This document shows, in pieces, positions 6,538-50,545 of a stretch of DNA of 52,450 bases. The notes beneath the pieces are model-generated. The model saw only the letters and a program-made list of their open reading frames with translations. It ran no database searches and was not told the DNA's origin. The DNA lies in IMG/VR virus record IMGVR_UViG_3300048930_001392, positions 1 to 52,450 of that record, one strand, 5' to 3'. This stretch comes from a virus (taxonomy: Duplodnaviria > Caudoviricetes). Position numbers and translations under genes: made by a program. Each line of letters starts with the position of its first letter. Position 1 is the first letter of the stretch.

Positions 6538-6565
6538 TCCGAACATAATATGCAGTAGTTTAGAT
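6538..6565 (-). other. Middle attachment junction between the two prophages
   Basis: Minus strand reads ATCTAAACTAC-TGCATA-TTATGTTCGGA; core ACATAATATGCA at 6543-6554. Confidence 0.85.
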
Positions 6566-6569
6566 GCCA

Positions 6570-6593
6570 TAACCGTTTGAAATCAGTGGGTTG
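6570..6593. promoter_or_regulatory. Back-to-back IHF-like sites at the left prophage end
   Basis: TAACCGTTTGAAA (near-match, reverse orientation) and AATCAGTGGGTTG (match to WATCARN4TTR). Confidence 0.5.
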
Positions 6594-6610
6594 CCGAACA
6601 GGGGTATTCG

Positions 6611-7570
6611 GTGATCCAACAGCTTGAACACTACACGAAGGGGCCAAAAAAGCCCCCATTGCACCACCTGGGCCATCATCCAACGATTGGCGCTGAAGCG
6701 CCCGAAACGGCGGTTTCGCCCGCGTTCCGATATCACGGGGCCAAGTTCCGGCTGTCGGGCTGGGTGCAGCAGCACTTCCCGCCCCATGTCACGTATGTAG
6801 AGCCATTCGGTGGAGCGGCCGGCGTATTGCTGACCAAGCCGCGCGCCTACGCGGAGGTCTACAACGACCTGGATGGCGATGTCGTCAATTTCTTTCGGGT
6901 GCTTCAAGACCCAACCCACCGCGACCGCCTTGTCGAGCTTTGCTACCTGACGCCATACGCTCGATCAGAATTTGAATTGGCGTGGGAGCCTACAGACGAT
7001 GCCGTGGAGCGGGCGCGGCGTCTGGTCATCCGCGCGCAAATGGGCTTCGGTTCTGCTGGCGCTACGAAAGGCAAGACCGGCTTTCGAATCGACACCGATC
7101 GGGCCTACGGCACATCCCAACACCATTGGGCAACCTATCCCGCAAGCTTGGCCGTCGTCGCCCAGCGATTCACGCAAGTGCTGATTGAAAACCGGCCCGC
7201 GATCGAAGTCATGCGCCAGCACGACGGGGCCAGCACGTTGCACTACGTTGACCCGCCATACCTACATTCCACACGGGTAATGTCATCGGGCAAAGCGGGT
7301 TACTACCGGCATGAAATGTCGGAAGAGGACCACATCGCCCTGTTGGACGTGCTGCTGGATCTGGAAGGCGCCGTGGTCGTTTCCGGTTACCCGTCCGCGC
7401 TGTACGACCAGCGCCTGGCTGGTTGGGCCAAGCATGAAACTGCAGCGCGTATTTCGGCAGGCCGCGGAACCGCTTTCAGAACCGAGTGCCTTTGGCTAAA
7501 CGGCGTAGCTGTGGCAGGGCTCGCACCGGACTGGCGACAGGTGTCACTGGGCATGGATGGTGTCGAATGA
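6611..7570 (+). CDS. Orphan Dam-like N6-adenine DNA methyltransferase
   Basis: YHGAK, YVEPFGGAAGV, YNDLD and DPPY motifs; start position uncertain. Confidence 0.9.
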   Translation: MIQQLEHYTKGPKKPPLHHLGHHPTIGAEAPETAVSPAFRYHGAKFRLSGWVQQHFPPHVTYVEPFGGAAGVLLTKPRAYAEVYNDLDGDVVNFFRVLQDPTHRDRLVELCYLTPYARSEFELAWEPTDDAVERARRLVIRAQMGFGSAGATKGKTGFRIDTDRAYGTSQHHWATYPASLAVVAQRFTQVLIENRPAIEVMRQHDGASTLHYVDPPYLHSTRVMSSGKAGYYRHEMSEEDHIALLDVLLDLEGAVVVSGYPSALYDQRLAGWAKHETAARISAGRGTAFRTECLWLNGVAVAGLAPDWRQVSLGMDGVE

Positions 7571-8484
7571 AGGCACCAGCCACCCAGGTGTACTGGAAGG
7601 AATGGTGCAGCGACATCGCCCTGCGCCGTTGTTCCTGGCAGGCGCAAGGCGTCCTGCCGCACGTCCTGCTACTGCTGCACACGTCGGATGATCAGTACGG
7701 TGTTTTGCGCTGGCCACTGGCCGAGATTGCCAAGACCGCGGGCGTTCCGCTGAAGTTTTTACGCGAGTTGGCCGCCAAAAATGTGTTGAAAGGCGGTGAC
7801 GTTTTCGAATCCGACTTTGTGCACTTTCCAACCCATGCAGGCAAGAAAGGTGAACCCATCATTCTGGTTAAAGGTGATGGCGGAAGTTGTTGGTTTCTCG
7901 CACGTTTGGTTCGCGATGAGTGGGCACGCAGACAGCGTGGCGCCGCCACTCGCTTCACTGAAGACAACCAACCCAGCCGCACACCAACCCGCCGGGTTGG
8001 TGATGGGTCAGTTAACGGCCCTGCTTTTGCTTCTGCTTCTGCTTTTGATTCTTCTAACAACACTGCGTCTGTTACTCCACTAGGGGGAGCGGAATCCCAC
8101 GCGCTCGCGTTGCGTCAAATCGGGTACAGCGAATGCAGTGCGATGGAGCCGAACCTGGTTGCAGCGAAGGCGGAAGGCATCACGCCTGAAGAGCTGGTCA
8201 CCATAGCGAAGAGCAAACCCGGCAAGCCGATCAGTTACCTGGTGCAGGCAGCGAGGGGCAAGCGAGCCGATGCCATCGAACGCAAGGGCGAGCCCGGCCA
8301 GGTGGTGGTGCCCATAGATCCAGCAGCCAAGGCAGCAGCCGACGAACAGCGGCGAATGGAGGATGCGCAGTACACGATCGCCAATGACTTCAGGCTGGGC
8401 ATCATCGATGAGGCAACACGTGATCAAAGGCTTGCATTGCTGGTGCGAAGCCCGGCGCAGCAGGCTGCGGGGGCACGCTCGTGA
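7567..8484 (+). CDS. Phage replication initiator (O/YdaU-like)
   Basis: ATGA-coupled to the methyltransferase. N-terminus 'KAPATQVYWKEWCSDIALRRCSWQAQG' resembles the RPxFQFYPxDWxxD..L..CS..ARG initiator family; central low-complexity linker. Confidence 0.65.
   Translation: MKAPATQVYWKEWCSDIALRRCSWQAQGVLPHVLLLLHTSDDQYGVLRWPLAEIAKTAGVPLKFLRELAAKNVLKGGDVFESDFVHFPTHAGKKGEPIILVKGDGGSCWFLARLVRDEWARRQRGAATRFTEDNQPSRTPTRRVGDGSVNGPAFASASAFDSSNNTASVTPLGGAESHALALRQIGYSECSAMEPNLVAAKAEGITPEELVTIAKSKPGKPISYLVQAARGKRADAIERKGEPGQVVVPIDPAAKAAADEQRRMEDAQYTIANDFRLGIIDEATRDQRLALLVRSPAQQAAGARS
7967..8060. repeat. Candidate replication origin inside the initiator gene
   Basis: ACCAACCC at 7967 and 7983, perfect inverted repeat CACCAACCC-GCC-GGGTTGGTG (7982-8002), then a GCTTyT hexamer run that is T-rich. 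Confidence 0.45.
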
Positions 8485-8591
8485 TTCCTTTCCTCCAATC
8501 ATTGCGCGCAAACACAGTTGTTCTGGCTTCGCGCCCCTGCGCATGGGGTAGGCCTGAACCCCTTGCTGGGCTTGGGCGAACCGCTGGCGAC

Positions 8592-8835
8592 TCTCCCGAA
8601 TGTTATGGTTATGTGAAGAAAAAGGAACCGGGCCGGAACCCTTGTAAGTCATTGATTCGTAAGGGTCTAAGGCAGGCGCACCGGTCGGAGTGTCGCAGGG
8701 GGTCGTGGAACAAACGAAATCCTAACAACTCCTTAACGTTCTTAACGTTGTTCAGCTACCCCCCCTTCAAACCTGAACGGGGTTCAGCTACCTGTACCAA
8801 CTACTACCTCCTCGAAAATTTGAAGAGGGTCCAGG
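8592..8835. other. Structured non-coding locus: Xer-arm-like sequence, IHF site, direct repeats and hairpins
   Basis: TTATGTGAAGA 8609-8619; IHF consensus TAAGTCATTGATT 8645-8657; CTTAACGTT twice in tandem; GTTCAGCTACC at 8750 and 8782. Confidence 0.45.
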
Positions 8836-8848
8836 GGGCGTTTGCCGG

Positions 8849-10012
8849 GTGCGTGCTGTGACGGCGGTGTTGCCGCCGGTCGCACCGCTGCCTGCGGACG
8901 CACTGGACGCGCTGCGCGGGCTGCCCAATGGTTCTGACCTGCCGGCGCACCGGCTGTGGCTGATGGGCGGCGAATTGCGCTTCAGCGAGGTTATGCGGCG
9001 GGTGGAGCGTCGCGGCCTGTCGGGCCGGGCGCTGGCCGAACTTTGGCTGTGGCTGGTGCACCTGGTGGTGGACATGGGCTCGCGTCCGGCCACCACTGGC
9101 CAGTCCTACGGCCGCACCGTGGCGCGGTTCCTGGCGTGGTGCGATGCCAACGGGGTCGACTTCACCCAGGCCACGCAGACGGAATTCGACAAGTGGCAAC
9201 GGTGGCTGGCCATCGACCAGCGCAACGGCGAGCGCTGGCGCACCCAGCAGGTGTACGCGCTGCGAAATTTTTACGACTGGCGCCGCAGTCGCGGCATCGC
9301 GGCCACCAACCTGGCGGCGGATCTGACCGGGCCGAAGGCGAAGCCCAAGCCGCCGAAGAAATACACCGACGACCAGCTGCGCGCCCTGTTCCGCGCGATC
9401 GACAGCGCACGGCCGATGCGCGCTGTGCGTGACCGCTGTGCGGTGCTTTTGTTGTTGACCACCGGCCTGCGCCGCGAAGAATTGGCGGGCCTGCAGCTGT
9501 CGCAACTGGAATTGACCAGGCGCACCGGTGTGGTACGCATCCGCGGCAAGGGTGCGAAGGAACGCGACGTGCCGTTCGAAGGTCCGGTGGTCGATGCGCT
9601 GCACGCCTGGCTGGCCGAACGTGATGCGCTGCCATATCCGTTCGACCGCGATGCGCTGTTCATCGGCTTAACCGGCCCACGGCAAGGGCAGCAGCTGTCG
9701 CTGCGCAGTTACGAAACCTTGATTGCACACCACGCCGTGGCCGCGAAATTACGCGACTGGGGTATTCATCGTTTCCGCGTCACGTTCGCCACGCAGCTTT
9801 ACGACGACGGTGCGGATATCGAAACCATCCGCGCCTTGATGGGCCACGAATCAATCGAAACCACGCGCCGTTACCTGGCCGTGTCGGAACGCGCACGCCG
9901 CACGCGCCTTAGTTCCGACCGACAGCACCGGGTGATGGGAACCAAGCCAACGGGTGCGCCGCTGTGGACGCGCATCGCAACAGGGGAGTTGACACGTGAT
10001 CAAGGGAATTGA
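8849..10012 (+). CDS. Tyrosine recombinase 1 (XerC/D-like, with N-terminal extension)
   Basis: TGLRREEL, GKGAKER, HRFR and LMGH...TTRRY give a full R-K-H-R-H-Y catalytic set. Confidence 0.92.
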   Translation: MRAVTAVLPPVAPLPADALDALRGLPNGSDLPAHRLWLMGGELRFSEVMRRVERRGLSGRALAELWLWLVHLVVDMGSRPATTGQSYGRTVARFLAWCDANGVDFTQATQTEFDKWQRWLAIDQRNGERWRTQQVYALRNFYDWRRSRGIAATNLAADLTGPKAKPKPPKKYTDDQLRALFRAIDSARPMRAVRDRCAVLLLLTTGLRREELAGLQLSQLELTRRTGVVRIRGKGAKERDVPFEGPVVDALHAWLAERDALPYPFDRDALFIGLTGPRQGQQLSLRSYETLIAHHAVAAKLRDWGIHRFRVTFATQLYDDGADIETIRALMGHESIETTRRYLAVSERARRTRLSSDRQHRVMGTKPTGAPLWTRIATGELTRDQGN

Positions 10013-10379
10013 GTTCAGCGCCGGCGGTGATCCGCCTACGGATTTTGAAATCAGGTTGCTTCAGGCATCGCAAGCGGAATCGCCATGGGTGCTGGTGGGT
10101 CAGCGTCTGATGTTGGAACTTGGACCAAGGGTCGGCGCGACCGCGCTGGCACTGGTGCTTGATGAGTTGGGTACAGAGAAAATCTATGTGACACCACGCC
10201 GAAATTTCTTTGAACGGTTATGGGGCGTGGAGCGCGACGCGAAAATTTGTGCGTTGGCCCTGCGCAACGAATGGAGTTATGGAGAGATCGCGCAAATGTT
10301 CAAAGTTTCAAAGCAGTACGTTTTTCAGTTAGTCACGGGGAAGTCAAGCCGCCGGACCGACAAAACGCGCCGGTCGTGA
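9996..10379 (+). CDS. Mor/C-like late transcription activator
   Basis: 'ELGTEKIYV...ERDAKI...SYGEIAQMFKVSKQYVFQLV' matches the Mu Mor/C pattern; lies just upstream of the packaging genes. Confidence 0.7.
   Translation: MIKGIEFSAGGDPPTDFEIRLLQASQAESPWVLVGQRLMLELGPRVGATALALVLDELGTEKIYVTPRRNFFERLWGVERDAKICALALRNEWSYGEIAQMFKVSKQYVFQLVTGKSSRRTDKTRRS
10343..10362 (+). promoter_or_regulatory. Late-promoter motif, copy 1 (upstream of terS)
   Basis: GTCAAGCCGCCGGACCGACA. Confidence 0.75.
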
Positions 10380-10392: not shown

Positions 10393-11160
10393 ATGACCGA
10401 ACCTGCCACACCTGCCAAACGCCAGCTGACGCCGGCCGAACTGCAACAGCGCCGCAATGCTGCGGCGCTGTCCACCGGTCCGCGCACGGACGAAGGCAAG
10501 GCGCGCAGTTCGCGCAACGCGTGGAAGCACGGCCTGACCAGTTCCATCCACCACGCGCATTTCGACAACGGCATGAAAAGCATGCTGGGCGCGATGGGCA
10601 AACCGTGCCTGACCACGTGTCCCAAGCATCCGGACAATCCGGATCGCACGGTGTCGGCCTGTTCGCTGGTGCAGGACGGCATCACGTCGGCCGGCGGAAG
10701 TTGCCTGGACAAGCAGGTGTATGTGCAGGCGTTCGCATCCATCATCGACGCGCTGGAAGGCGGGTCGATGGAAGGCATGCACGGCCTGATGGCGTCGGAA
10801 ATTTCCGCCGCGCTGCAGATGCTGCACGAACTGCGCGCCAACATCGCAGACCAGGGCTTCGTCATGGGCATTCCCATGATCGACGACGATGGCAACGTCA
10901 TCACCCGCGCCGATGGCAGCGAGGTATACGGCAAATACGTGTCGAACCCAGGCTATCCGATGATGCTGAAAACACTGGAAGTCCTGGGCATCAGCCTGCC
11001 CGAACTGCTGGCCACGCCGCAGTCGCAGGCACGCGCCAAGGTGGAAGTGGAAAAGGTCGACGCCATGCAGACCATGCTGGGCGGAATTTTCCAGCGCACC
11101 AGCGCGGCGCGCAAAGCGCAACCTGGGCGCCCCGCCATCGAACACGACGGCGGCGAATAG
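10393..11160 (+). CDS. Putative terminase small subunit
   Basis: STGPRTDEGKARSSRNAWKHG motif plus a Cys cluster; directly upstream of terL. Confidence 0.7.
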   Translation: MTEPATPAKRQLTPAELQQRRNAAALSTGPRTDEGKARSSRNAWKHGLTSSIHHAHFDNGMKSMLGAMGKPCLTTCPKHPDNPDRTVSACSLVQDGITSAGGSCLDKQVYVQAFASIIDALEGGSMEGMHGLMASEISAALQMLHELRANIADQGFVMGIPMIDDDGNVITRADGSEVYGKYVSNPGYPMMLKTLEVLGISLPELLATPQSQARAKVEVEKVDAMQTMLGGIFQRTSAARKAQPGRPAIEHDGGE

Positions 11161-13040
11161 TGGGCCGCCAGCGCACCAGCACCGGAATCCTTCAGGCGCA
11201 GATGCTGGACCGCGGCGTGTACGACATCGACGAATTCGATGCGTGGCTGGCGGAGAGCGGCTGGACGTGGAAACGCCTGGAACGCGGCGACTACGGCATC
11301 ACGCTGGATGAAGCCCTGCTGATGTTCACCTGCGAAGATCCGCTGCGCTGGTCGGAAACTTTCCTGTTTGAGCCCGACAGCGGCGAGCCGTACCGGTTCT
11401 GGGATTACCAGCGCGAAAGCATCCGCGCGTGGATGCAGGACGTGATCCACCAGGACGGCGCAGAGTGCGGCAAGACGCGCGAAATTATCGCGCTGATCGC
11501 GTGGGCCGGTTGCACGTCGATGGGCGGGCGTGTCGCCAACCCGTGGACGTTGGTGGCGGCACCGCAGACCACCCACCTGGACGAAATCACCCTGGCGCTG
11601 GAAGAACAGTTCGGCGTGTCCGATGGTGCCGGGCAGAAAACATTGATCCAGCATTTCTGGCTGAAGCCGAAAAAAACGCCACACACCATGCACCGGTTCC
11701 TGTCGCCGAACCCATTGCGTCCCGACAAGCCCAGCATTGCGCGCACGTACTACCGCCCAGGCGGCCACGACGGCGAAGCCTTCCGCGGTGTGCACGTCAA
11801 CGCCTTCGGCCTGTTCGATGAAGCGGCGAAGGTGAAAAATAAAGTAATTTTCAGCGAGTTCTGGCGCGCACTGAAACCCGGGTGCCGTTCGCGGATCTAT
11901 TCCGTTCCGGACGGCGACCGCAGCACGGAATACTTCCGCCTGACCCAAGCCGCGCAACTGAACCTGCCGCTGGCAAAAGAGGGCTACCGCCTGTTCCGTT
12001 GGGCGCAATCGCTGAAGCCCGCGCCGTTCTGGGATGAAAAACGCGAGGCGGACATGATCCGCCGCTTCGGTGGCCGCAACACGCCGGGGTATCAGCGCAA
12101 CGTGCTGGGCGAACACGGCCAGTCGGAAAACCCGGTGTGGCCTTGGTCGGTGCTGATGCCCAACGTGGTGGAAATGCCGGACTATCGTTTCATCCGCCTG
12201 CACGCGGACGCGGAAGCGGACAGCCTGACCATCGAGGTCATGTCCGTGAAGATGACGCACAACGCCGGCCGCAAGGTTGGCGAATACGTCTGGCACGAAG
12301 ACACCAGCATCGCGCTGACACCGCTGCTGAAGGGCACCGACAGCGAGCGACGCGCGGCGATGCGCGAGATATTGCGGCCGTACATTCGCGCCGTGGCGCA
12401 GGGCGTGTTCTGGGCGGGTGCCGACTTGGGCGAACGCAGCGATCCCACAGAAATCATCCTTAGCGAAGAGATCGGCCCGGTCTTCCACGACCGCGTGCGC
12501 ATCCAGGCCAAGGGCTTCCCGTACCACCTGCAGGAAGAATTGATCTATGTCCTGGACAGCCTGTTCAATCACCTGCCGTTCTGGGCGGCCGACCTTGGCA
12601 GCGCCGGCACCACGGTGGTCAAGAACCTGATCAACGTGGATCGATTCGCCGATGCGAATTTTGAAGACCGCATGATCGGTTTCCATTTCCAGCAGACCGT
12701 GCCGTGCATTGGCGAAGACGGCGAAATGCTGGAGGAAGACGACCCACGCACCGGCGAGCGCAAGGAACTGACCGCGCCCGCCAAGCACTGGGCCACGCAG
12801 TGCATCAGCGCCCGCCTGCAGGCGGGCGGCTACGCGCTGCCCTATGACACCACCGCGCTGAATGACATGGCCACGCAGACCGCGCGAGCGGGCGCCAAGT
12901 GGCCGATCTACTCGAAACAAGCGGACCACCACCCGGACGCACGCCGCCAGCAGATGCTGCGGAAGCTGCGGTCATTGATCGACGACGGCGTGGGGCACGA
13001 CCTGTTCGCGTCCGGCGTTGCGGAAAGGAACGCGGCATGA
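11160..13040 (+). CDS. terL: Terminase large subunit
   Basis: GTG start overlaps the terS TAG. Walker A-like GAECGKT, Walker B LFDEAA, nuclease motif AGADLG. Confidence 0.85.
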   Translation: MGRQRTSTGILQAQMLDRGVYDIDEFDAWLAESGWTWKRLERGDYGITLDEALLMFTCEDPLRWSETFLFEPDSGEPYRFWDYQRESIRAWMQDVIHQDGAECGKTREIIALIAWAGCTSMGGRVANPWTLVAAPQTTHLDEITLALEEQFGVSDGAGQKTLIQHFWLKPKKTPHTMHRFLSPNPLRPDKPSIARTYYRPGGHDGEAFRGVHVNAFGLFDEAAKVKNKVIFSEFWRALKPGCRSRIYSVPDGDRSTEYFRLTQAAQLNLPLAKEGYRLFRWAQSLKPAPFWDEKREADMIRRFGGRNTPGYQRNVLGEHGQSENPVWPWSVLMPNVVEMPDYRFIRLHADAEADSLTIEVMSVKMTHNAGRKVGEYVWHEDTSIALTPLLKGTDSERRAAMREILRPYIRAVAQGVFWAGADLGERSDPTEIILSEEIGPVFHDRVRIQAKGFPYHLQEELIYVLDSLFNHLPFWAADLGSAGTTVVKNLINVDRFADANFEDRMIGFHFQQTVPCIGEDGEMLEEDDPRTGERKELTAPAKHWATQCISARLQAGGYALPYDTTALNDMATQTARAGAKWPIYSKQADHHPDARRQQMLRKLRSLIDDGVGHDLFASGVAERNAA

Positions 13041-13090
13041 CCACCACCACCCTGCGCCACGCGGCGCCACAGACCGAGACATTCGCATGA
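13037..13090 (+). CDS. 17-aa mini-ORF linking terL and portal
   Basis: MTTTTLRHAAPQTETFA*, with ATGA overlaps at both ends and SD AAGGA. Confidence 0.45.
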   Translation: MTTTTLRHAAPQTETFA

Positions 13091-15237
13091 ACCTGAAACC
13101 CATGGACTGGTTCCGCCGCAAGACCAGTGACACCGACCCCACCCACAACCAGGGCGGCGGCATTGCCGCGTCCACGCGTGACACGCTGCCGATGGGGGCG
13201 TGGTCCAGTACGTTCGCCAACTGGCAGCCGCGGAGCAAGTCGCCCTGGTTGCTGGAAGCCCTGCGTGAAGCGCTGCCCATCCTGGACGGCGGCATCAATC
13301 GCCTGGTAACACTCGACGGCATCATCGAAGTCGAGGGCGCGAACGAAAAGCTGGTGGATGAAATCCGCGAGTGGATGCGCAACGTTCCGGTCAACGATCT
13401 GGAAAGTGGCTACCAGGCGTTCTACGCCAGCCTGGGTGCGGAACACTACGAACAGGGCGTCGGCGTGGGTGAGTTCATCTACGACAGCAAGGGCCGTGAC
13501 GTGATCGGCCTGCGCGTGGCCGACAGCAAGGGCATCGCCTTCGTGCGCGCGGAAAACCGCCTGCAGGTGTATTACCGCGCACCCGGTAGCGACCACGACC
13601 TGCGCAGCGATGGACTGGGTACGGTGGAATCCATCCTGCGTGGCACCAGCGGCACGCCGGTGTCGCAGGGTGCCACGCTGAAGGGCAACGGTTATGTGGA
13701 ACTGGACCCCGCGCAGTGCGTGTTCGCGTTGCACCGCCCGGAAGCCGACAACCCCTACGGCACCAGCATCCTGCGCAGCCTTCCGTTTGTCGCGCAGATC
13801 CTGCTGAAGATGGAAAACGCGAGTGGCCGCACGTGGGAACGTTTCGGCGACCCGCCGTTCCACGTGCACTACGCCACCAAAAATCGCAAGATCAGTGCGG
13901 ATGATGCGCTGAAGCGCGCCAACACCATCGCCACGAACCTGGCCAAGGCACTGACCGGCAAGTCGCGCGGCAACAGCGTGGACCTGGCCACCGCTGCTGC
14001 TGCCGATGATGAAATCAAGTTGGAAATCATTGGCGCACAGGGCATCGCGCTGGAAATCGAGGCGCCCGCCCGTCACATGCTTGAACAGATCGTGTCCGCG
14101 TTCGGCCTGCCGCCGTGGATGCTGGGCATCACCTGGTCACAAGCCGCCGGTATCGGCGAGCAACAGTCCGTGGTGGTGTTGCAGGAATCGCAGACGCGGT
14201 TCGAGTTGCGCAAGCCTGGGCTGGAGCGACCGATTATCGCCATGCTGCGTGCGCGTGGCCGCACGTGGAAGCCGGGCGACTGGGATCTGGTGCAGCGCCT
14301 GCCGAACCTGATGGACGAAGAGCGCAAGGCGCGGGCGCGGTTCCTGAATGCCCAGACCGAAATGATGCAGAACGAAGCCGGAAACACGGAACCGCCACCC
14401 ACGGGCCGCGGCATCGACAACAACCTGCGTTCGGTGCGTGCCCGCCGTGCAAAAGCACGCAAGGCACCGGCCGACGACGAAAGAGAAGGGGAAGCGTGGG
14501 CCATTGACGACCCGGCACTGCCCCGCATCGAGGCTGAAACCATCGGCGGCATGCTGGGCGTGTGGAACCGCATGCGCGGTGAAGTGCTGACACGGCTGGG
14601 CCTGAACTTGCCGCTGGCCGACACCTTCACGTTTGACCAGGACCAGTTGCCGGATCTGCTGCTGTTGGGTCAACAGCAGGTGCGCGACCTACGCCCGGAA
14701 TTGTTGGCGGGGCAGTTGGATGCGTGGGATCGCGGAATCGAGAATGCGGACGCCAGCACGCCTGCGAAAGCCGCAGGGCGCAAGGGCTGGGCCGATGATC
14801 CCGTGGTAGCCGCCGCCATTGAAGCCATGCGCGCGGAAGCACGCGCGACGTTCATCACCACGGGCCTGGCTATGGTGAAAGACGGCGTGGCCCGCACGTT
14901 CCGCCAACGCATAGTGGCCGCACTTGCGTCCGGCGAATTCGACGGGCAGAACCCGGTGAACGTGGCGCGGGAATTGTCGCAGCGATTCGACGCGGGCGAA
15001 TACAACTGGGAACGGCTGGCGCGCAGCGAAATTGCAATGGCGCAGTCAGACGGCAGCCTGGTGATGATGCGCGAGCAAGGCACCACGCTGGTGGATTACC
15101 TGACGGCGGAGGATTCCGAGGTGTCGCGCATTTGCCGTGAACTGGCAGAAGCCGGGCCGTACGCCATCGCCGATGTACCGGTGCCGGTGCGTGATTCCCA
15201 TCCGAACTGCCGGTGCGCACTGGCGGCTGTTGACTGA
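13087..15237 (+). CDS. Portal protein fused to a MuF-like minor head domain
   Basis: Follows terL. Portal-like 'DNPYGTSILR' and 'FGLPPWMLG'; C-terminal 'RLARSE...HPNCRC' MuF signature in the same frame. Confidence 0.8.
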   Translation: MNLKPMDWFRRKTSDTDPTHNQGGGIAASTRDTLPMGAWSSTFANWQPRSKSPWLLEALREALPILDGGINRLVTLDGIIEVEGANEKLVDEIREWMRNVPVNDLESGYQAFYASLGAEHYEQGVGVGEFIYDSKGRDVIGLRVADSKGIAFVRAENRLQVYYRAPGSDHDLRSDGLGTVESILRGTSGTPVSQGATLKGNGYVELDPAQCVFALHRPEADNPYGTSILRSLPFVAQILLKMENASGRTWERFGDPPFHVHYATKNRKISADDALKRANTIATNLAKALTGKSRGNSVDLATAAAADDEIKLEIIGAQGIALEIEAPARHMLEQIVSAFGLPPWMLGITWSQAAGIGEQQSVVVLQESQTRFELRKPGLERPIIAMLRARGRTWKPGDWDLVQRLPNLMDEERKARARFLNAQTEMMQNEAGNTEPPPTGRGIDNNLRSVRARRAKARKAPADDEREGEAWAIDDPALPRIEAETIGGMLGVWNRMRGEVLTRLGLNLPLADTFTFDQDQLPDLLLLGQQQVRDLRPELLAGQLDAWDRGIENADASTPAKAAGRKGWADDPVVAAAIEAMRAEARATFITTGLAMVKDGVARTFRQRIVAALASGEFDGQNPVNVARELSQRFDAGEYNWERLARSEIAMAQSDGSLVMMREQGTTLVDYLTAEDSEVSRICRELAEAGPYAIADVPVPVRDSHPNCRCALAAVD

Positions 15238-15252
15238 CGAATTTTGCCCGCC

Positions 15253-15272
15253 GTCAAGTAGCCGGGCCGACA
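15253..15272 (+). promoter_or_regulatory. Late-promoter motif, copy 2 (upstream of head genes)
   Basis: GTCAAGTAGCCGGGCCGACA. Confidence 0.75.
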
Positions 15273-15339
15273 GCACGCACCCGGGCCTGTAACCCTTCAT
15301 CCCGTCCATATCCCCGCTGATTCGCGGGGGGTTACCGGA

Positions 15340-20939: not shown

Positions 20940-20957
20940 TCAGACAGGAGCGGCGGC

Positions 20958-31320: not shown

Positions 31321-31321
31321 C

Positions 31322-34669: not shown

Positions 34670-34675
34670 ACGGGC

Positions 34676-34695: not shown

Positions 34696-34725
34696 GCGGG
34701 GCAGGGGCGGGGTGCAATGCGCGGC

Positions 34726-37643: not shown

Positions 37644-37724
37644 GCCGGCAGTCTGGCAACCCGGGAAACATTTGTCGTTTCCTAGGGGTTGACTTTCAGA
37701 ATATCCGTTTGCGATACTCGCAGC
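37644..37724. promoter_or_regulatory. Divergent immunity promoters
   Basis: Plus strand: TTGACT(37689)-N18-GATACT(37713), 6 nt before ATG 37725. Minus strand: ACGACA-N17-CAGACT, 6 nt before ATG 37643. Confidence 0.65.
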
Positions 37725-40294: not shown

Positions 40295-41250
40295 ACGTCT
40301 TCCGCAATGCAACGTTTTTTCGTTTCCCGGTGTCGGTGTCGCATGCCTTCGTGGCTACCGAATCGCACGGCCACCAGTCGTTCGAAATGGTGGAGCCCCA
40401 CGCCATCGCCCTGCTGCAGGATTGCACTCTGAAGCCCGTAGGTCCGCTGGAAATGTCGTCGCGCGGCTTCGTCTCGCCGTATGGCCAGGGTGATGACCGG
40501 TTGGCCATGATGCACGGCGATTTCGTCGGGCTCACGGTGGCCGGTGAAGACAAGATCCTGCCGCCGTCCGTGGTCAACCGCTTGCTGTCGGAAAAGCTGA
40601 TCGCCATCGAGGAACGCGAAGGTCGCAAGCCCGGTGTCCGCACACGCAAGCGCATCAAGGAAGACCTGGTGCACGAACTGCTGCCCAAGGCGCTGGTGAA
40701 GCCGTCGCGCATCGACGTGCTGCTGGACTTGAAGCGCGGGTTTATCGCGGTGGACACCGCCAGCCGCAAGCAAGCGGAATCGGTGGTCAGCCAGATCCGT
40801 CACGCGCTGGGCAGTTTCCCTGCGCTGGCGCTGAATGCGGAAGCGTCGCCGCGCCTGGTGATGACCGGGTGGCTGGCGGGCGAACCTTTGCCGGACGGCA
40901 TCGCCGTGGGCGACTGCGCCACACTGAAAGACGCAGCCGATCACGGCGGGACGGTGAAGCTGCAGGACGTGGATCTGTCGGGCGCGGAAGTGGTGCAGCA
41001 CCTGGAAGCGGGCAAGCAGGTGGCACGCCTGGAACTGCACCACGATGCCGACATCACGTTCACGCTGGGCGAAGACCTGGTGTTGCGCAAGCTGTCATTC
41101 GGCAGCGGGCTGTGGAATCAGCTGGAAGGCACCGAACGCGAAGACCTGGCGGCCGAACTGGATGCGCGCTTCGTGGTGCTATCCGCCGCCATCGGTGGAT
41201 TGTTCGACGTGCTGGAACAGGCGTTGACGATCAGCAAGGCGGAGGGTTGA
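40291..41250 (+). CDS. rdgC: Recombination-associated protein RdgC
   Basis: 'FRNATFFRF...GPLEMSSRGFVSP...EDKILPPSVV...ELLPKA...ELDARF' pattern. Confidence 0.92.
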   Translation: MNVFRNATFFRFPVSVSHAFVATESHGHQSFEMVEPHAIALLQDCTLKPVGPLEMSSRGFVSPYGQGDDRLAMMHGDFVGLTVAGEDKILPPSVVNRLLSEKLIAIEEREGRKPGVRTRKRIKEDLVHELLPKALVKPSRIDVLLDLKRGFIAVDTASRKQAESVVSQIRHALGSFPALALNAEASPRLVMTGWLAGEPLPDGIAVGDCATLKDAADHGGTVKLQDVDLSGAEVVQHLEAGKQVARLELHHDADITFTLGEDLVLRKLSFGSGLWNQLEGTEREDLAAELDARFVVLSAAIGGLFDVLEQALTISKAEG

Positions 41251-41253: not shown

Positions 41254-41841
41254 ATGCACGCACCCGAATCGCTTGCGTTCGTAGTGAAACTGCCGATTGC
41301 GCCTGGCCGGTCGATACCGCTTTTCGATATCTGGCACATCGACCCATGCCGTGGGTCTAGCGATGATTCATGCGGGTGGACGTACCCACGACTGACGGAC
41401 AAGCAACGCCAGGCGATGCGTGACCTAGGGTTCTGGGAATCACGCGAGCGCCATTTCCTGCGCTATCCGTTCAAGAAATACACCGCCGACGTGGCCGACC
41501 GCGAAACGCTCTATCGTGGCCTGGTGCTGCTGGTGGCGCGTGTCCTGCACTTGAACGTGTCATATGAGCACGCGGCCAAGATGGCAGCCGAGCGATTCGC
41601 AGTCGGCGGATGCGACGGACTGGATGGCACGTTCTGCTGGCTTCCCGGGTATCACTCCAATTCGCAGGAAGACCGCCTGGACGACCGCGCTCACCATTGG
41701 GCCGGAATCTGCGGCGGAATTGCGCGGGAGTTGCTGCGTGCAAAGCGGCGCTGGTGGCAGCATCCAAGGTGGCACGTGCATCACTGGAAAATCCAGTGGA
41801 CGTTCGTTCGCAGTTTCAGCCGTGCGCGGGGTGCCGCATGA
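41254..41841 (+). CDS. Hypothetical protein (Trp/His-rich C-terminus)
   Basis: 'IWHIDP...DDSCGW' and 'WWQHPRWHVHHWKIQ'; ATGA-coupled to recombinase 2. Confidence 0.6.
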   Translation: MHAPESLAFVVKLPIAPGRSIPLFDIWHIDPCRGSSDDSCGWTYPRLTDKQRQAMRDLGFWESRERHFLRYPFKKYTADVADRETLYRGLVLLVARVLHLNVSYEHAAKMAAERFAVGGCDGLDGTFCWLPGYHSNSQEDRLDDRAHHWAGICGGIARELLRAKRRWWQHPRWHVHHWKIQWTFVRSFSRARGAA

Positions 41842-42797
41842 ACGTCACCCGCATCCGCCCCGTCGACGGCATCCCCGGTGACTTGACCCTGCTGATCGCG
41901 CAGTACCTGCAGCACCGCGCCTTCCGTGGCGCCGCACGCAACACCGTGCTGGCCTACGGCGACGACCTGAAGCGCATGGCCGCGTTCATGGCCCGCGCCG
42001 ACGTCACCCTGGTGCAGCTGGTCAGCGAACGCCTGTTGAACCGCTGGCTGGATGACGGCCTGCAGCACCACCAGTGGAGCCTGCGCACCGCCGCACGTCG
42101 CCTGGCCGCCGTGCATATGTTCCTGTCCTGGTGCCGCGGCGAAGGCTACGTGGACCATGACGCCACCCAGCACGTGAAGATCCGCTTCCGCCCGCGCACC
42201 GTGGTGGCGCCGGAACTGGAACCGCTGAAGGACGTGATCACCGGCATCGGCACCACGCTGGCCATCGACCTGCGCGATCGCGCCATCCTGCTGCTGCTGC
42301 TGGACACCGCCCTGCGTGCCGGCGAAATCGCGCTACTGGACGCGCCAGGGCAGGGCAGTGGGCGCTACACCGCCGACCTGCGCCGCCAGCAGCTGCGCGT
42401 GCGGCCCAAGGGCGGCACGGACGCCGACGTGGACGTGCTGGGCATGGAGGAACAGACCGTGGCCGCGCTGTCCGCCTGGCTGCGCGTGCGCGGGCAGATG
42501 GCACGTGACGGTGAGGCGGCCCTGTTCGTAAATCAGAACGGCACCCGCTTCACCCGCCAGAGCCTGTACGTGATGGTGCGCCAGCGCGGTGCAGACGCGG
42601 GCCTACCCAAGTTGCACCCGCATCTGTTCCGCCATCGCCGTATCGGCGACATCGTGGAAAAGCTGGGCCTGCGCGCCGGCAGTGCCCACGCTCGCCACCG
42701 CCAGGTGTCCACCACCGCCAACGTCTATGGCGCGCACGCCGCGGAAGTCACGCGGCAGGCCATCCGCACGTTGGCCCCACTGGGAGCGCTGACATGA
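41838..42797 (+). CDS. Tyrosine recombinase 2 (XerC/D-like)
   Basis: NTVLAY..DL and TAARRLAAV N-terminal domain; TALRAGE, PKGG, HLFRH and ARH...TTANVY catalytic motifs. Confidence 0.9.
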   Translation: MNVTRIRPVDGIPGDLTLLIAQYLQHRAFRGAARNTVLAYGDDLKRMAAFMARADVTLVQLVSERLLNRWLDDGLQHHQWSLRTAARRLAAVHMFLSWCRGEGYVDHDATQHVKIRFRPRTVVAPELEPLKDVITGIGTTLAIDLRDRAILLLLLDTALRAGEIALLDAPGQGSGRYTADLRRQQLRVRPKGGTDADVDVLGMEEQTVAALSAWLRVRGQMARDGEAALFVNQNGTRFTRQSLYVMVRQRGADAGLPKLHPHLFRHRRIGDIVEKLGLRAGSAHARHRQVSTTANVYGAHAAEVTRQAIRTLAPLGALT

Positions 42798-43060: not shown

Positions 43061-43707
43061 CCCAGCTGCAAACCGATGCGATCGTACTCGCCAAGCGGGG
43101 TGACTTTGCCTTGCTGGATGCGATGGAACTGGAGCATCGCCTGAAGAATGACCACGACGTGGTGTGCGGCTATCTGGTCGGTGGTCGCTTGCGCCTGTTT
43201 TCCCTAGGCAACCGGGAAAACTGCCTTTGCGAAAACTGCGATGGAACCTGCGACATCGAATGCAGCGAATGCAAGGGCGGCACCATCGACTGCGAGGAAT
43301 GCGCGGACGACGACGATCACTGCGTGAAGTGCACCGCGTGCGAAGGCGAAGGGTGCGGTGAATGCGTCGACGGCAAGTTGGCATGCCCGGAATGCACCGG
43401 TACCGGCGTCGTCGATTGCGAGGTATGCGACGGGGTTGGCACGCAGGAATGCGAGGACTGCGAAGGCACCGGACTGGGCGAGTTCGATCCGCACTGTAAC
43501 GAACACGACGTGGTGAATCTCGACGGCCGCGTGGTGTGGAGTCAAGGCGATGACGCACCCAACCCGACTGAAGGTGCCCGGCAGGTAGGCCGGTCATGGG
43601 CCGACAGCGTGATGACGCCTTACCACGCCAAACAAAAAGAACAGGCGGCTACGCCCGCCCAACCTATCCAGACCCCTTTGATCCCGGAGAACTATTCATG
43701 CGCGTAA
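43051..43707 (+). CDS. Multi-CxxC zinc-finger protein (DnaJ-like CxxCxGxG repeats)
   Basis: At least eight CxxC pairs, several followed by xGxG; no J domain. Confidence 0.7.
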   Translation: MALTQLQTDAIVLAKRGDFALLDAMELEHRLKNDHDVVCGYLVGGRLRLFSLGNRENCLCENCDGTCDIECSECKGGTIDCEECADDDDHCVKCTACEGEGCGECVDGKLACPECTGTGVVDCEVCDGVGTQECEDCEGTGLGEFDPHCNEHDVVNLDGRVVWSQGDDAPNPTEGARQVGRSWADSVMTPYHAKQKEQAATPAQPIQTPLIPENYSCA

Positions 43708-44762
43708 CCGCCACCGCCGCCGATCTGTCGGCCGCCCTGAAACATTCCGTCGCTGCCCGCACCACGCCCATGCCCATCCTGCAGCACGCGCTGCTGACCA
43801 CCGGCGACAACGTGTTGCATCTGGAAACCAGCGATATCGAAATCTACATGCGCCACACCATCCCCGCGCAGGTGGACGAACCCGGCAGCATCTGCTTGAC
43901 CGATGCCCTGCTGCGCACCATCGCCAGCGGCGGCGGCGACGTGATCCTGCGCGACAGCGGCAAGGTCAGCCGCGGGCGTAGCCACTTCACCGTGCCGGCA
44001 CTGGCTGCAAATGAATTCCCGGTACCGGAGTCATCGCAGTTCGAACCGTTGAACGTGGACCCGGAAGCGCTTGCGGATGCCATCCGCCTGGTGGATTACG
44101 CCTACGGTGACGGCGACATCCGCCCCTACGTGCGCGCCGTGCATATCGAGCCCGGCCGCGTGTGGAGTACCAACGGCAGCCAGGCGGGCCGTGCGGCGCT
44201 GGCCTACCAAGGCCCGGCCATCCGCGTGCCGGGCGCGCAGTTGAAGCGCCTGTGCAGTGCCCTGGTGGAAGGGGCGCGCGTGCTGGGCGACGTGCGCAAC
44301 GGCGTGGTGGCTATGTTGCGGGTGGAAACCTTCAGCACGCAGATCACGGTGCGCTGCATCGATGGTCCAGCCCCGAACATCGATACGTTTATCCCGCACC
44401 TGGGCAAGCGCAGCGTGGTGCGCGTCAACCGTCGCGCCCTGATGGACGCCGTGCGCCGCACGCTGCCGTTCCTGGTTACCAAAAACAAGGCGATCCCGGT
44501 CATCAAGATCACGCAGTCGGCGGAAGGCCTGGCCTTGTTGGACAAGGCCGACACCTGTGCGGAGTTCGTGGCCATCGAGCCGCAAGCCCAGGTGGATGCG
44601 TTGGAACTGGGGCTGGACGCTAACTTCCTGCTGGCAGCGCTGGGTGCAGTCAGCGATGACATCGTGGAACTGTACCTGCACAACAGCGCACCGGCCCTGA
44701 TCCTTCCTGACGCTGGCGACGTGGCGGCGATTGCCCACGTCATCATGCCGTGCCGGCTGTAA
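43698..44762 (+). CDS. DNA polymerase III beta-clamp homologue
   Basis: 'RTTPMPILQHALL...TSDIEI...ANEFP...VIMPCRL'; about 354 aa, DnaN-like length and termini. Confidence 0.85.
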   Translation: MRVTATAADLSAALKHSVAARTTPMPILQHALLTTGDNVLHLETSDIEIYMRHTIPAQVDEPGSICLTDALLRTIASGGGDVILRDSGKVSRGRSHFTVPALAANEFPVPESSQFEPLNVDPEALADAIRLVDYAYGDGDIRPYVRAVHIEPGRVWSTNGSQAGRAALAYQGPAIRVPGAQLKRLCSALVEGARVLGDVRNGVVAMLRVETFSTQITVRCIDGPAPNIDTFIPHLGKRSVVRVNRRALMDAVRRTLPFLVTKNKAIPVIKITQSAEGLALLDKADTCAEFVAIEPQAQVDALELGLDANFLLAALGAVSDDIVELYLHNSAPALILPDAGDVAAIAHVIMPCRL

Positions 44763-48578: not shown

Positions 48579-48823
48579 TCATTGGACGCATTGCGGGAGC
48601 CACCCGCGAACTGGGAAAACCCGCGAACTGGAACGCCGATCGCGATGGTGAATGTGGATCGCTCGCCATCCTGGACGTAACCGCGGAGGGCGGGCACAAC
48701 GTGATGATGTCCGCGTGGTACCCCACGCCGGACGAAGTGGCGCGCATCGCTGCCGGTGAACCCGTTTACCTGTCGATCTGGGGTGTGATGCACCCGCCGG
48801 TCATGTTGTCGGTGGCGCCATGA
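48575..48823 (+). CDS. Conserved-type small phage protein
   Basis: 'LGKPANW...CGSL...SAWYPTPDE...HPPV'; ATGA-coupled. Confidence 0.6.
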   Translation: MIIGRIAGATRELGKPANWNADRDGECGSLAILDVTAEGGHNVMMSAWYPTPDEVARIAAGEPVYLSIWGVMHPPVMLSVAP

Positions 48824-49260
48824 GTCGCGGCCACCAGCTGTTTGTCGCCACCGGTCGCCTGGGCGCTGATCCCGTCACCAAGGCACCGCAAAGTGGCGGC
48901 GTGATCACTGAATTCCGGATCGCCTGCACCGAAGTGTGGAAGGGCAGGGACGGCACCAAGCACGAACACACCGAATGGATACGCGCCAAGCTGTTTGGCC
49001 GTGCCGCCGAGATTGCACAGCAGTACCTGGCCAAGGGTTCGCTGGTCACCATCGAAGGCAAGGTGCGCACCGAAAAATGGCAAGCATCCGACGGCAGCGA
49101 TCGGTACAGTCAATGGATATACGTCGATGAATTGCACATGCACGGCGGCAACCCACACGAAGCCACCAAACCCGAACACCAGGGCCGCCCGAAACAGGCG
49201 GATGACACCAACGCAGCACCCGTGGACAGCCAGTTCAATGACGACGATATCCCGTTCTAG
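48820..49260 (+). CDS. ssb: Single-stranded DNA-binding protein
   Basis: GRLGADP, EHTEW, YLAKGSLV.IEGK and a C-terminal DDDIPF. Confidence 0.93.
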   Translation: MSRGHQLFVATGRLGADPVTKAPQSGGVITEFRIACTEVWKGRDGTKHEHTEWIRAKLFGRAAEIAQQYLAKGSLVTIEGKVRTEKWQASDGSDRYSQWIYVDELHMHGGNPHEATKPEHQGRPKQADDTNAAPVDSQFNDDDIPF

Positions 49261-49495
49261 AACCATCATTCTGGGAGGCACGAAAGATCAGGCCCGGGCC
49301 TGCGCAATTCGACGCGGCATCAAGTCGGATGAATGGATCTACTGCGGTCGCAATGGCGATGTTTTCCGTGGGCGACGGTCGCCGCGCGTCATCACCACTG
49401 GAACATGGACGCAGCGCAGTGACTTGGTTGCGATTCAATACGCGATGCGGGCGGCAAACGTAAAGCCGGAGGATGTCACGAATGATCCGTTTTGA
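49238..49495 (+). CDS. Hypothetical last gene of the early operon
   Basis: Fills the gap between ssb and the convergent recombinase 3, overlapping both. Confidence 0.4.
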   Translation: MTTISRSRTIILGGTKDQARACAIRRGIKSDEWIYCGRNGDVFRGRRSPRVITTGTWTQRSDLVAIQYAMRAANVKPEDVTNDPF

Positions 49496-50432
49496 TTCGC
49501 GCGGCCCGCGGGTGATGGCCAACCGCGGTGCGCAGTTCCTTCAGATCCACAGCCACGTAATGCGCCGTGGTGCTGGCGTCCACGTGGCCCAGCAGCTGCG
49601 CCAGGTTCATCACGTTCACGCCGGCCTTGTTCAATTCGGTGGCGTAGCTGGCGCGCAGCATATGCGGGTAGTGGCCTCGCCACGGTCGACTGGTGGACGT
49701 GTGCGACAGGCGCGTGTAGCCGCAGGCCGTGCCCAGGGCCGCGCGGGCGTAGCGGTTCACAATGACCCACACGGAACGCCCGTCGCGCAGCGCCTTGCCG
49801 TGCTGTGTGACGAACAACGCGTTGCGCTTGCCGCAGCCACTGGTGGCGCGCACGGCCAGGTACTGGTCCAGCAGGGTGCGCCACTCGCCGCCGTAGGGCA
49901 CCAGGCGTTCCTTGTCGCCCTTGCCGCGCACCAGCAGGTAACCATCCAGCCGCACGCTGCCGAGTTCGAGCCCCGCCAGTTCGCTGGCACGCAGGCCGCA
50001 CTGGTACAGCGTGGCGATGATCACGTGGTCACGCAGGCCCACGAAGGTCGACAGATCCGGCGCCGCCAGCAGCATGCCGACTTCGACGTCGGTCAATGCC
50101 CGCACCAGGCGCCGGTGCAGTCGCATCTGCTTGGGGTATTGACCAGGCTGCCACATATGCGGAGCGGCGACGCGCAGCCACTTGAACCACGCTTTCAACC
50201 CGCTGACTTCCATGTTCATCGACGCCTGACCCACGCGGTCACGTCGAATGGCCAGGTAACGCAGCAGCGTGTCTGCATCACCGGTTCCGGTCTCGCCACA
50301 CGCCAGCAGCCACCGATCCACGACCGCGACGTAAGCCCGCACCGTGGCCGGCGACCTGCGCACCGCCTGCAGGTAGGTCTTGAAGCCTTCCCGTAGCGGG
50401 GCAGACACAACATAACCACGTATTAGCGTCAT
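49476..50432 (-). CDS. Tyrosine recombinase 3, XerC/XerD-like, next to att (probable integrase; start uncertain)
   Basis: SPATVRAY, CGLRASEL, GKGDKERLVP, PHMLR.SYAT.L and LLGH...TTAHY, plus the Xer-typical HHPRA near the C-terminus. Confidence 0.92.
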   Translation of the reverse strand: MTLIRGYVVSAPLREGFKTYLQAVRRSPATVRAYVAVVDRWLLACGETGTGDADTLLRYLAIRRDRVGQASMNMEVSGLKAWFKWLRVAAPHMWQPGQYPKQMRLHRRLVRALTDVEVGMLLAAPDLSTFVGLRDHVIIATLYQCGLRASELAGLELGSVRLDGYLLVRGKGDKERLVPYGGEWRTLLDQYLAVRATSGCGKRNALFVTQHGKALRDGRSVWVIVNRYARAALGTACGYTRLSHTSTSRPWRGHYPHMLRASYATELNKAGVNVMNLAQLLGHVDASTTAHYVAVDLKELRTAVGHHPRAARIKTDHS

Positions 50433-50464
50433 CAACAGAAATTCCAGTCCACAATCACGACTGG

Positions 50465-50490
50465 CAAACCATTGATAAATCAAACAGATG
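50465..50490. promoter_or_regulatory. Back-to-back IHF-like sites at the right prophage end
   Basis: CAAACCATTGATA (consensus, reverse orientation) and AATCAAACAGATG (near-match). Confidence 0.55.
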
Positions 50491-50517
50491 GGGCGCGTTA
50501 CCTGACTACCTGCCGAT

Positions 50518-50545
50518 TATTTACATAATATGCATTATGCGAAAT
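50518..50545 (-). other. dif: Complete chromosomal dif site (right attachment junction)
   Basis: Minus strand ATTTCGCATAA-TGCATA-TTATGTAAATA, compared with E. coli GGTGCGCATAA-TGTATA-TTATGTTAAAT. Confidence 0.92.

Follow-up and report, generated by a model that had tools for sequence, protein, structure and literature searches.

The window analyzed here, an entire virus record of 52,450 nucleotides (IMGVR_UViG_3300048930_001392; no genome sequence lies beyond it), contains a prophage of about 44 kb integrated at dif, which is among the most conserved and least dispensable short sites of bacterial chromosomes and whose known exploiters are small and bring no recombinase. Judging by its portal, major capsid, tape measure and tail proteins, the element is a temperate siphovirus-type phage of the Caudoviricetes, and it encodes three Xer-like tyrosine recombinases, denoted Int1, Int2 and Int3. 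Sequence comparison makes it probable, in our assessment, that Int3 and an adjoining half-dif attP form the dif-targeting integration module of a distinct lineage of temperate siphoviruses, with Microcystis phage MACPNOA1 as its sole named member. What appears to be new is a temperate element targeting dif that is tailed and carries its own putative Xer-like integrase; integration at dif is strongly supported, by comparison of junctions, at the level of the lineage. A preliminary description, made from the sequence alone, had read the element as a tailed phage at dif with three recombinases, a reading that holds for the window and extends to the whole lineage.

Boundaries of the prophage and its inovirus neighbor

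The 12-mer ACATAATATGCA occurs in the window in three exact copies, at 163, 6543 and 50523, and three matches with at most one mismatch were obtained in none of 100 shuffled sequences (mean 0.11). The rightmost copy lies within a complete 28-nt dif at 50518-50545 (reverse complement ATTTCGCATAA-TGCATA-TTATGTAAATA) that agrees with the proteobacterial dif table of PMC2731167, for example with the Methylobacillus site ACTTCGCATAATGTATATTATGTAAAAT, and also with the Escherichia coli dif as quoted in PMC3603311. The copies at 163 and 6543 keep just a remnant of the XerD-side arm and the central TATGCA, and the right arms of these two junctions, TTCCCTTCCGG at 175 and GTAGTTTAGAT at 6555, are unrelated. 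In the first 6 kb, the G+C content is 0.52-0.55; it rises to 0.58-0.66 between 6 and 50 kb and drops to 0.57 at the right end. The preliminary description had bounded the element by a dif core and, on the right, a full dif, both of which are borne out by the 12-mer copies and the 28-mer; its left core at 6543 stands, but the third core at 163 and the IMEX (integrative mobile element exploiting Xer) next to the phage had been missed.

This neighbor is a filamentous phage. Positions 163-6554 constitute a separate inovirus prophage, so that the 6543 junction joins two phages and not a phage and its host; the tailed prophage and the inovirus IMEX share the dif locus as a tandem array. The inovirus looks complete, with a CI-like repressor gene at its left end and an XafT-like gene, encoding a DUF3653 protein, at its right end. 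The latter is located 91 nt from the 6543 core, which places the inovirus among the IMEXs of the TLCphi/XafT type; according to the available text of PMC6744903, TLCphi activates XerD through the factor XafT, whose domain is DUF3653, and this domain is typical of dif-adjacent IMEXs. The repressor open reading frame (ORF) spans the 163 junction, so its last ~20 codons derive from the flank. Given that just 162 nt precede the first junction, the window leaves the order of arrival undecided, and either order yields the present arrangement.

The flank to the right of the full dif gave no family match in Pfam or NCBIfam. Sequencing runs were consulted as Logan contigs, which can reveal a phage-free flank and cannot reveal circle junctions. 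In three further runs, two of them from metagenomes and one from a named organism, contigs match the window only from 50520 rightwards and otherwise diverge from the phage, and in the likely source run (X1) a contig of about twice the phage depth begins its match at 50523 (flank depth 103, phage depth ~45, figures that are not shares of cells). For runs X2-X24, uncovered parts and small word shares carry no habitat information. A stretch of ~40 nt outside the XerC arm (50557-50597) varies between runs through many substitutions, small indels and a 12-nt deletion, unlike the remainder of the right flank, which is near-identical between runs.

A chance repeat or an assembly chimera, with the phage not truly at dif, might be suspected in a metagenome-type viral record whose likely source run contains the right-flank junction in two versions. 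The shuffling result argues against this explanation, as does the recurrence of the same architecture in other, independent assemblies and in genomes of species representatives where both junctions are present, and we regard it as scarcely credible.

A lineage of related phages

Among 50,697 phage records, megablast with 20 kb of the phage gave no match, and the sole relative was MACPNOA1 (KY697807), the only record with matches to the Int3, Int1 and Int2 clades. It is matched by 22 of the 57 window proteins in the same order (41-54% identity), including all four recombinases, that is, the three tyrosine recombinases and a serine recombinase, at 41-45%. Searches with the terminase region and with an Int3 alignment identified the IMG/VR relatives G001, G002, G003, G006, G007 and G008; together with the window and MACPNOA1, these are the eight near-complete viral records considered below. 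A single-sequence Int3 scan of viral contigs gave only matches of 22-37% identity, because its exact-peptide seeds missed the true relatives, and the scan of genome contigs yielded, among the matches listed, only host Xer-type genes (27-41% identity). In 401 species genomes sampled from the order of a Lysobacteraceae metagenome-assembled genome, an Int3-clade gene was detected in four.

The preliminary description had allowed that Int1 and Int2 might be sporadic among relatives. Both are present in all eight near-complete viral records (Int3 in seven) and, at the expected spacing, in three of the four Int3-bearing genomes of the Lysobacteraceae order.

The MACPNOA1 genome has 68% G+C and a half-dif attP of proteobacterial type (central TATACA) at 40490-40520. 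Although the record was deposited as that of a cyanophage, the actual host may thus be a proteobacterial associate of Microcystis. Three papers that name this phage list it as a cyanophage, and the portions of them available to us contain no mention of dif or recombinases. The ends of the MACPNOA1 record were considered as a cos site and rejected, the same ~80 nt at both ends being an assembly overlap. The MACPNOA1 gene annotated as XerD (12355-13344) corresponds to the tail protein at 19953-20939 of the window.

The att site across the lineage

Joining the arm at 50518-50528 to that at 6555-6565 gives the deduced attP of the window phage, ATTTACATAA-TATGCA-GTAGTTTAGAT. The same architecture is found in MACPNOA1, which is not integrated and has TTTGACATAA-TATACA-GTGGCTTAGGT ~120 nt upstream of its Int3 gene; intact attPs are present in MACPNOA1, G006, G007 and 12 metagenome loci. 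The circle junction between Int3 and Int1 that had been predicted for the phage is visible in non-integrated relatives, MACPNOA1 and a record bearing direct terminal repeats among them.

Scanning metagenomes with an Int3 alignment of seven rows returned 44 loci, 27 of them at 38% identity or above, and 20 of these with at least 170 nt upstream. The pattern N11-N6-TTATGT occurs within 500 nt upstream of the Int3 match in 18 of these 20 testable loci, and in each of them the TTATGT arm is the one closest to int3. L155, one of the two misses, has the one-base variant TTGTGT. Six of the 18 sites carry a XerC arm (integrated) and 12 a non-XerC phage arm (free or tandem). Where flanks are long, it is only at sites of the phage-arm type that Int1, and with it phage DNA, is present on the other side, as an attP predicts. 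One 111-kb metagenome contig contains two Int3 copies (L157 and L158) 44.6 kb apart, one with an attP-type site and Int1 across it, the other with a full dif and non-phage DNA across it; the arrangement is that of a related phage in tandem double lysogeny at dif.

A full dif is located 87-254 nt upstream of the Int3 match in all four lysogenic genomes, and each of the G001 and G003 proviruses has a hybrid site at one end and a full dif at the other, both ends sharing one central region (TAGGCA in G001, TGTACA in G003). In G338, G055 and G191, the partner hybrid junction lies 42.5, 41.5 and 45.5 kb away, just beyond Int1. Twelve distinct integrated copies (the window, G001, G003, L170, L158/L159, L167, L168, L175, G338, G055, G191 and G017) all border a full dif, no copy having been found at another location, contrary to the earlier concern that relatives might integrate at unrelated sites. 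Both junctions are resolved in six of these copies (the window, G001, G003, G338, G055 and G191), the centrals being equal within each pair and different between hosts. The cumulative GC skew of G338, taken over 350 kb, reaches its maximum at 745-785 kb, and the prophage occupies 749.5-792.1 kb, placing the site at the replication terminus.

The central region of attP equals that of the dif of each host, and the variants seen are TGCATA, TGTATA, TGCCTA, TGTACA, TACATA, TGTCTA, TCAATA and TGCACA. The dif central region is constant within species and variable between species (Carnoy and Roten, PMC2731167). The covariation of the phage centrals with host dif points to strand exchange across the central region and to host-specific adaptation of attP. 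The phage arm of attL (6555-6565) is kept in relatives and is a motif of the Int3 subclade, not a decayed XerC arm: GTCAAAC is found in all five members with a known arm in one subclade, and TAAnCnA-like arms are found in the Int3 subclade of the window. In some relatives, the rebuilt dif has a poor outer XerD arm, as in the attR of G001 (L131, ~3500-3530), where this arm is TTATGTACTAG and position 25 is C and not the conserved A; lysogeny may thus weaken the host dif.

Four recombinases, three of them Xer-like

Int1, Int2 and Int3 each consist of a SAM-like N domain and a Phage_integrase catalytic domain (Pfam). The full R-K-H-R-H-Y set is kept in all three clades, as read from alignment columns numbered on E. 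coli XerD (one Int1 is cut by the end of its locus), and in Int3 all six residues are invariant in seven of seven sequences. These data uphold the three two-domain tyrosine recombinases with catalytic sets of the preliminary description, the count of which had, nevertheless, missed a fourth recombinase, a small serine enzyme that is syntenic in all five genomes compared.

The NCBIfam XerC/XerD scores are 162.5/143.3 bits for Int1, 100.1/83.7 for Int2 and 152.2/143.0 for Int3, against equivalog cut-offs of 335.15 bits for XerC and 329.6 bits for XerD. The closest solved structures are XerD (1A0P) and archaeal XerA, and a PDB search at E 1e-3 returned neither lambda Int nor Cre; Pfam gave no match to an arm-binding N-terminal domain. 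Identity to E. coli XerC, and likewise to XerD, is ~26-32% for all three proteins, whose scores are ~20-24 bits against lambda Int and ~20 bits against Cre; for Int3, the comparison is ~97 bits to XerC or XerD versus ~21 bits to lambda Int. A tree of 41 rows resolves Int1, Int2 and Int3 as three distinct clades with Shimodaira-Hasegawa-like approximate likelihood ratio test (SH-aLRT) values of 99, 98 and 100, each apart from host Xer proteins, and these deep clades indicate that the three are not recent duplicates. Int3 was grouped weakly (83% SH-aLRT) with a set including XerD-type sequences. By these sequence criteria, Int1, Int2 and Int3 are Xer-like 'simple' tyrosine recombinases and not orthologues of XerC or XerD; the earlier designation 'XerC/D-like' is upheld as to their Xer-like character.

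The genomic contexts of the three differ. Int1 precedes the genes for a 127-amino-acid (aa) small helix-turn-helix (HTH) protein, a 255-aa protein and a terminase-like protein. Int2 lies in the early operon, downstream of RdgC and upstream of the clamp-like gene, and overlaps its neighbors. The three genes, at 8849, 41838 and 49476, are 32 kb and 7 kb apart and belong to different operons. In RIT (recombinases in trio) elements, which likewise have three tyrosine recombinases per element, the genes are adjacent to one another, and the present set therefore falls outside that class.

Joint action of the three enzymes at att, one for each kind of half-site (XerC, XerD and phage arm), could account for the co-occurrence, in nearly every member, of three half-site kinds and three catalytically intact recombinases. 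It sits poorly with their different transcription contexts (late/packaging block, early operon and divergent at att) and with their three deep, separate clades, which do not form a recent co-adapted set; moreover, nothing ties Int1 or Int2 to att. We consider joint action very unlikely. The scheme of the preliminary description, in which the enzymes act in stages for integration, excision and late genome processing, is conjectural as regards Int1 and Int2.

Upstream of Int1, positions 8485-8848 (364 nt) form the sole strongly conserved intergenic block of the phage, the relatives of which are only 40-70% identical in protein. This region holds the palindrome TTGCGCGCAA just past the upstream stop codon, the block GTAAGTCATTGATTCGTAAGGGT and a C7 run, and a hairpin, CCCCTC-N9-GAGGGG, is located ~40 nt ahead of Int1; an overlapping ORF, 8080-8652 on the minus strand, is probably spurious. 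A search of the phage for target sites of Int1 and Int2 gave no defensible candidate, and only this region stood out. Our guess, by analogy, is that Int1, Int2 and the serine recombinase process the phage genome, through cyclization or multimer resolution, and do not integrate it. Cre of phage P1 is a phage tyrosine recombinase for cyclization or dimer resolution, not integration, and the P1 annotation names it 'cyclization recombinase'; Cre/lox is therefore a possible analogy for Int1 or Int2, but there is no specific similarity (~20 bits), and no lox-like site was identified in this phage.

How integration may proceed

The attP lies within a few hundred bases of the start of int3, which diverges from the site, and consists of a XerD-type arm (TTATGT...) nearest int3, a 6-bp center matching the host dif and a non-XerC, clade-specific phage arm. 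In the route that we propose, Int3 would recombine attP with the chromosomal dif across the central region. The product on the int3 side would be a full dif made of the phage XerD-type arm and the host XerC arm, and the product at the far end a hybrid of the host XerD arm and the phage arm. As it has no XerC arm, the far junction should resist deletion driven by XerCD/FtsK. Escape from deletion via a modified site has been proposed for difGGI and LME-1, as far as the available text of PMC9765430 goes.

Several observations weigh against this route. Int3 is the putative integrase by virtue of adjacency and conservation, and half-dif attPs are reported for integrase-less tailless phages in the accessible part of PMC12715192. 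Within attP, conservation is strongest in the XerD-type arm (nearly all members have TTATGT, and many have TTATGTAAAAT), which fits participation of host XerD or even a reaction carried out wholly by host XerCD. In the window, the left partner is the inovirus, so this record by itself lacks the host XerD arm. G002 is without Int3, and its provirus call stops before the expected place of the gene, which may reflect truncation; G017 (contig C76), with the most divergent Int3, is without Int1 and Int2 in our search, again perhaps through truncation; and the second miss of the metagenome scan, L169, has no site within its 171 nt upstream. The terminus position was examined in one genome only, G338. 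Finally, the identity of the terminase rests on a language-model lead and a P-loop, the AlphaFold model from a 5-row alignment having a predicted local distance difference test (pLDDT) score of 37.

Host XerC and XerD alone might integrate the phage through a dif mimic, as in a true IMEX, with Int3 serving in excision control, immunity or dimer resolution. Conservation of the XerD-type arm and of the host-matching central region is compatible with this possibility, and lysogenic hosts do carry both enzymes, at loci other than those of the phage recombinases: in three such hosts, XerD exceeds the cut-off in all three and XerC in two, the third scoring 334.5 against 335.15 bits. One-armed dif-like attPs serve integrase-less elements, and XafT can work in trans, according to what is available of PMC12715192 and PMC6744903; an XafT-type inovirus adjoins the phage in the window. 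Against exclusive use of the host enzymes, Int3 stands beside attP, in the same orientation, in all members examined, and the non-XerD arm is the clade-specific motif described above and not a relic of a XerC arm. Furthermore, phmmer found no XafT-like protein in five tailed-phage genomes, and the G001 junctions are flanked by host genes, with no inovirus. We judge integration by host XerC and XerD alone to be unlikely.

The asymmetry of attP, with one canonical XerD arm and one phage-specific arm, raises the possibility of an obligate partnership in which Int3 would occupy the phage arm, in place of XerC, and host XerD the TTATGT arms, with FtsK-independent exchange in a mixed tetramer. By our reading of the sequences, neither attP arm is a good inverted repeat of the other, which favors two different binders; Int3 has ~30% identity to each of the two E. 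coli enzymes, and the solved structures closest to it are those of XerA and XerD. However, the outer bases of the XerD arm are degenerate in several members (for example TTATGTACTAG, TTATGTCCAGA and TTATGTCCGGA), which argues against a strict need for XerD, and the grouping of Int3 with the XerD-type set in the tree is weak, the binding partnership being a prediction only. We view such a partnership as a real but minority possibility. Doubtful, in our estimate, is a broader version in which Int3 is a partner of XerD without FtsK or XafT and Int1 and Int2 form a phage-private Xer-like pair that resolves or circularizes genomes. A mixed phage-host recombinase complex would, if it exists, represent a new class of dif exploiter that brings one recombinase and borrows the other.

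Comparison with known systems

Recombination of attP with dif by Int3, the mechanism that we favor, can be set beside several known systems, which are characterized here as far as the available text of the cited papers describes them. CTXphi, VGJphi, TLCphi, inoviruses of the Cf/XacF1 type and the gonococcal genetic island likewise use dif through a dif-mimicking attP (PMC6744903, PMC12715192, PMC9765430), and known IMEXs, like this phage, regenerate dif on one side, leave a modified site on the other and occur in tandem arrays at dif. These IMEXs are small filamentous or satellite phages or islands that have no recombinase of their own and depend on host XerCD, some with XafT, whereas the present lineage comprises tailed phages of 42-45 kb in which attP is always accompanied by an adjacent Xer-like recombinase gene and no XafT-like gene was found. 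Thus, two hallmarks of an IMEX, location at the chromosomal dif and a dif-like attP, are present in this phage, and the third, freedom from recombinase genes, is absent.

The dif-type double-jelly-roll (tailless) vibriophages are also double-stranded DNA phages at dif, with left- or right-armed attPs, but differ in virion type, size (<16 kb), the terminal position of rstR and xafT and the absence of a triple recombinase set (PMC12715192). Tailless prophages at dif 'regularly carried integrase genes', with the mechanism left open (PMC11630473), and microviruses of Bacteroidetes have been mentioned in connection with dif exploitation. LME-1 of Legionella is likewise a large phage-like element at dif with one intact and one modified dif, the latter stabilizing; in that case, recombination is credited to the single host recombinase XerL, and att is 22 bp of dif with symmetric arms (PMC9765430). 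With lambda-type modules, the lineage shares the placement of int next to attP in a temperate tailed phage; it differs in that Int3 has no match to an arm-binding domain and in that the target is dif and not a tRNA gene or an ordinary intergenic site. The core common to both junctions is 12 nt in the window and ~15-18 nt in G001 and G003. No tailed dif-integrating phage was found described in the full-text literature searched, a scope that leaves out most subscription journals and supplements; the IMEX lists in the supplements of PMC6744903 and PMC12715192 could include tailed prophages.

Gene content of the window

The features of the window are collected in Table 1. Further genes recognized in the phage with PHROG and Pfam include a CII-like activator, and DNA methyltransferases number two in total. 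No tRNA and no Rfam family was found in the window.

Table 1. Annotated features of the 52,450-nt window in order of position
Feature	Positions	Strand	Basis or remark
Inovirus CI-like repressor	102-536	-	Pfam
dif-derived junction 1	158-185	.	good XerD-type arm 158-168, central TATGCA 169-174, inovirus arm TTCCCTTCCGG 175-185
Inovirus (filamentous) prophage, separate XafT-type IMEX	163-6554	+	Pfam; tblastn to Ralstonia, Xanthomonas and Stenotrophomonas inoviruses; low G+C
Inovirus G2P-type Rep	1599-2435		Pfam
Inovirus gpV-like single-stranded DNA-binding protein	2448-2750		Pfam
Inovirus Zot/pI	4937-6124		Pfam
DUF3653 (XafT-like XerD-activation domain) protein, last inovirus gene	6147-6452	-	PF12375, 25.4 bits vs cut-off 22.4; weak NCBIfam VC1465/XafT match
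attL of tailed prophage	6538-6565	.	degenerate inovirus XerD-like arm 6538-6548, central TATGCA 6549-6554, phage-specific arm GTAGTTTAGAT 6555-6565
Siphovirus-type prophage, ~44 kb	6555-50522	+	PHROG/Pfam annotation; synteny with MACPNOA1 and IMG/VR records rated 98-100% complete
D12-class N6-adenine DNA methyltransferase	6611-7570	+	
Conserved non-coding block preceding Int1; candidate promoter or site of packaging or recombination	8485-8848	+	alignment of 6 relatives
Int1, Xer-like tyrosine recombinase, first gene of packaging/late block	8849-10012	+	
127-aa protein, possible small terminase or regulator	9996-10379	+	weak HTH matches only; kept in relatives
255-aa gene	10393-11160		limits from relatives
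Putative large terminase, 612 aa, very divergent	11202-13040	+	P-loop GAECGKT; directly upstream of portal
Portal fused to MuF-like minor head domain	13018-15237	+	43.8% identity to MACPNOA1
Head decoration protein	16795-17142		PHROG/Pfam
Major capsid protein	17155-18252	+	Pfam Phage_capsid_4
Tail protein, tail chaperone, tape measure	within 19953-23945		PHROG/Pfam
Tape measure protein	21714-23945	+	
Central tail fiber J-like protein	25083-27635	+	phrog_31, E 1.6e-105
Cro/XRE-type HTH regulator, opens early operon	37689-37964	+	
Small serine recombinase (resolvase N-terminal domain only)	37964-38713	+	directly after Cro-like gene
RdgC-like recombination-associated protein	40252-41250	+	
Int2, Xer-like tyrosine recombinase, early replication/recombination operon	41838-42797	+	start overlaps upstream gene
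DNA polymerase III beta-clamp-like protein	43596-44762	+	
Single-strand DNA-binding protein	48820-49260	+	
Int3, Xer-like tyrosine recombinase adjoining att, putative integrase	49476-50483	-	
attR = full dif 28-mer	50518-50545	-	phage-derived XerD arm 50518-50528, central 50529-50534, host-derived XerC arm 50535-50545
Right flank, outside phage	50546-52450	.	occurs phage-free in other metagenomes and one named organism; Atlas taxa Pseudomonadota

The ORF 10521-13040, which had no PDB match by phmmer, was rejected as a single gene, as relatives have stops in its first ~200 codons. The terminase-like protein at 11202-13040 gave no match in Pfam, PHROG, NCBIfam or PDB sequences; its nearest Atlas clusters are Terminase_6N/6C (cosine 0.98, a language-model lead only). 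For the 127-aa ORF after Int1, which the preliminary description had labeled a late activator, the weak HTH matches give that label no support. The segment 44763-44951, considered as a conserved non-coding block, proved to be a small winged-helix gene.

Two kinds of repeats were observed. A 536-aa late protein (gene 32761-34371) contains ten copies of a 63-nt (21-aa) repeat at 33328-34185; it has no family match and is probably a tail fiber or host-recognition protein. A motif of 31-45 nt (GTCAAGCCGCCGGGCCGACAGCAC...) occurs in four copies, at 10343-10373, 15252-15296, 31321-31365 and 34675-34719, of which three lie between genes in the late region and one sits at the 3' end of the gene for the 127-aa protein; the motif may be a phage-specific terminator or regulatory element.

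Implications

The present observations would widen the range of dif exploiters to the Caudoviricetes, that is, to full-size tailed phages with their own Xer-like integrase and a half-dif attP. The central region of attP tracks the host dif and could therefore serve as a marker for host prediction; in MACPNOA1, the attP suggests that the host is a proteobacterium and not a cyanobacterium. Int1 and Int2, both conserved and with intact active sites, are possible new tools for site-specific recombination. For the biology of the bacterial chromosome, this lineage would explain one class of terminus-located prophages, and it offers a natural system in which to follow the coexistence of a foreign Xer-like enzyme with XerCD/FtsK at one site, the escape of an insertion from deletion at each cell division and the sharing of the site with filamentous IMEXs in tandem arrays.

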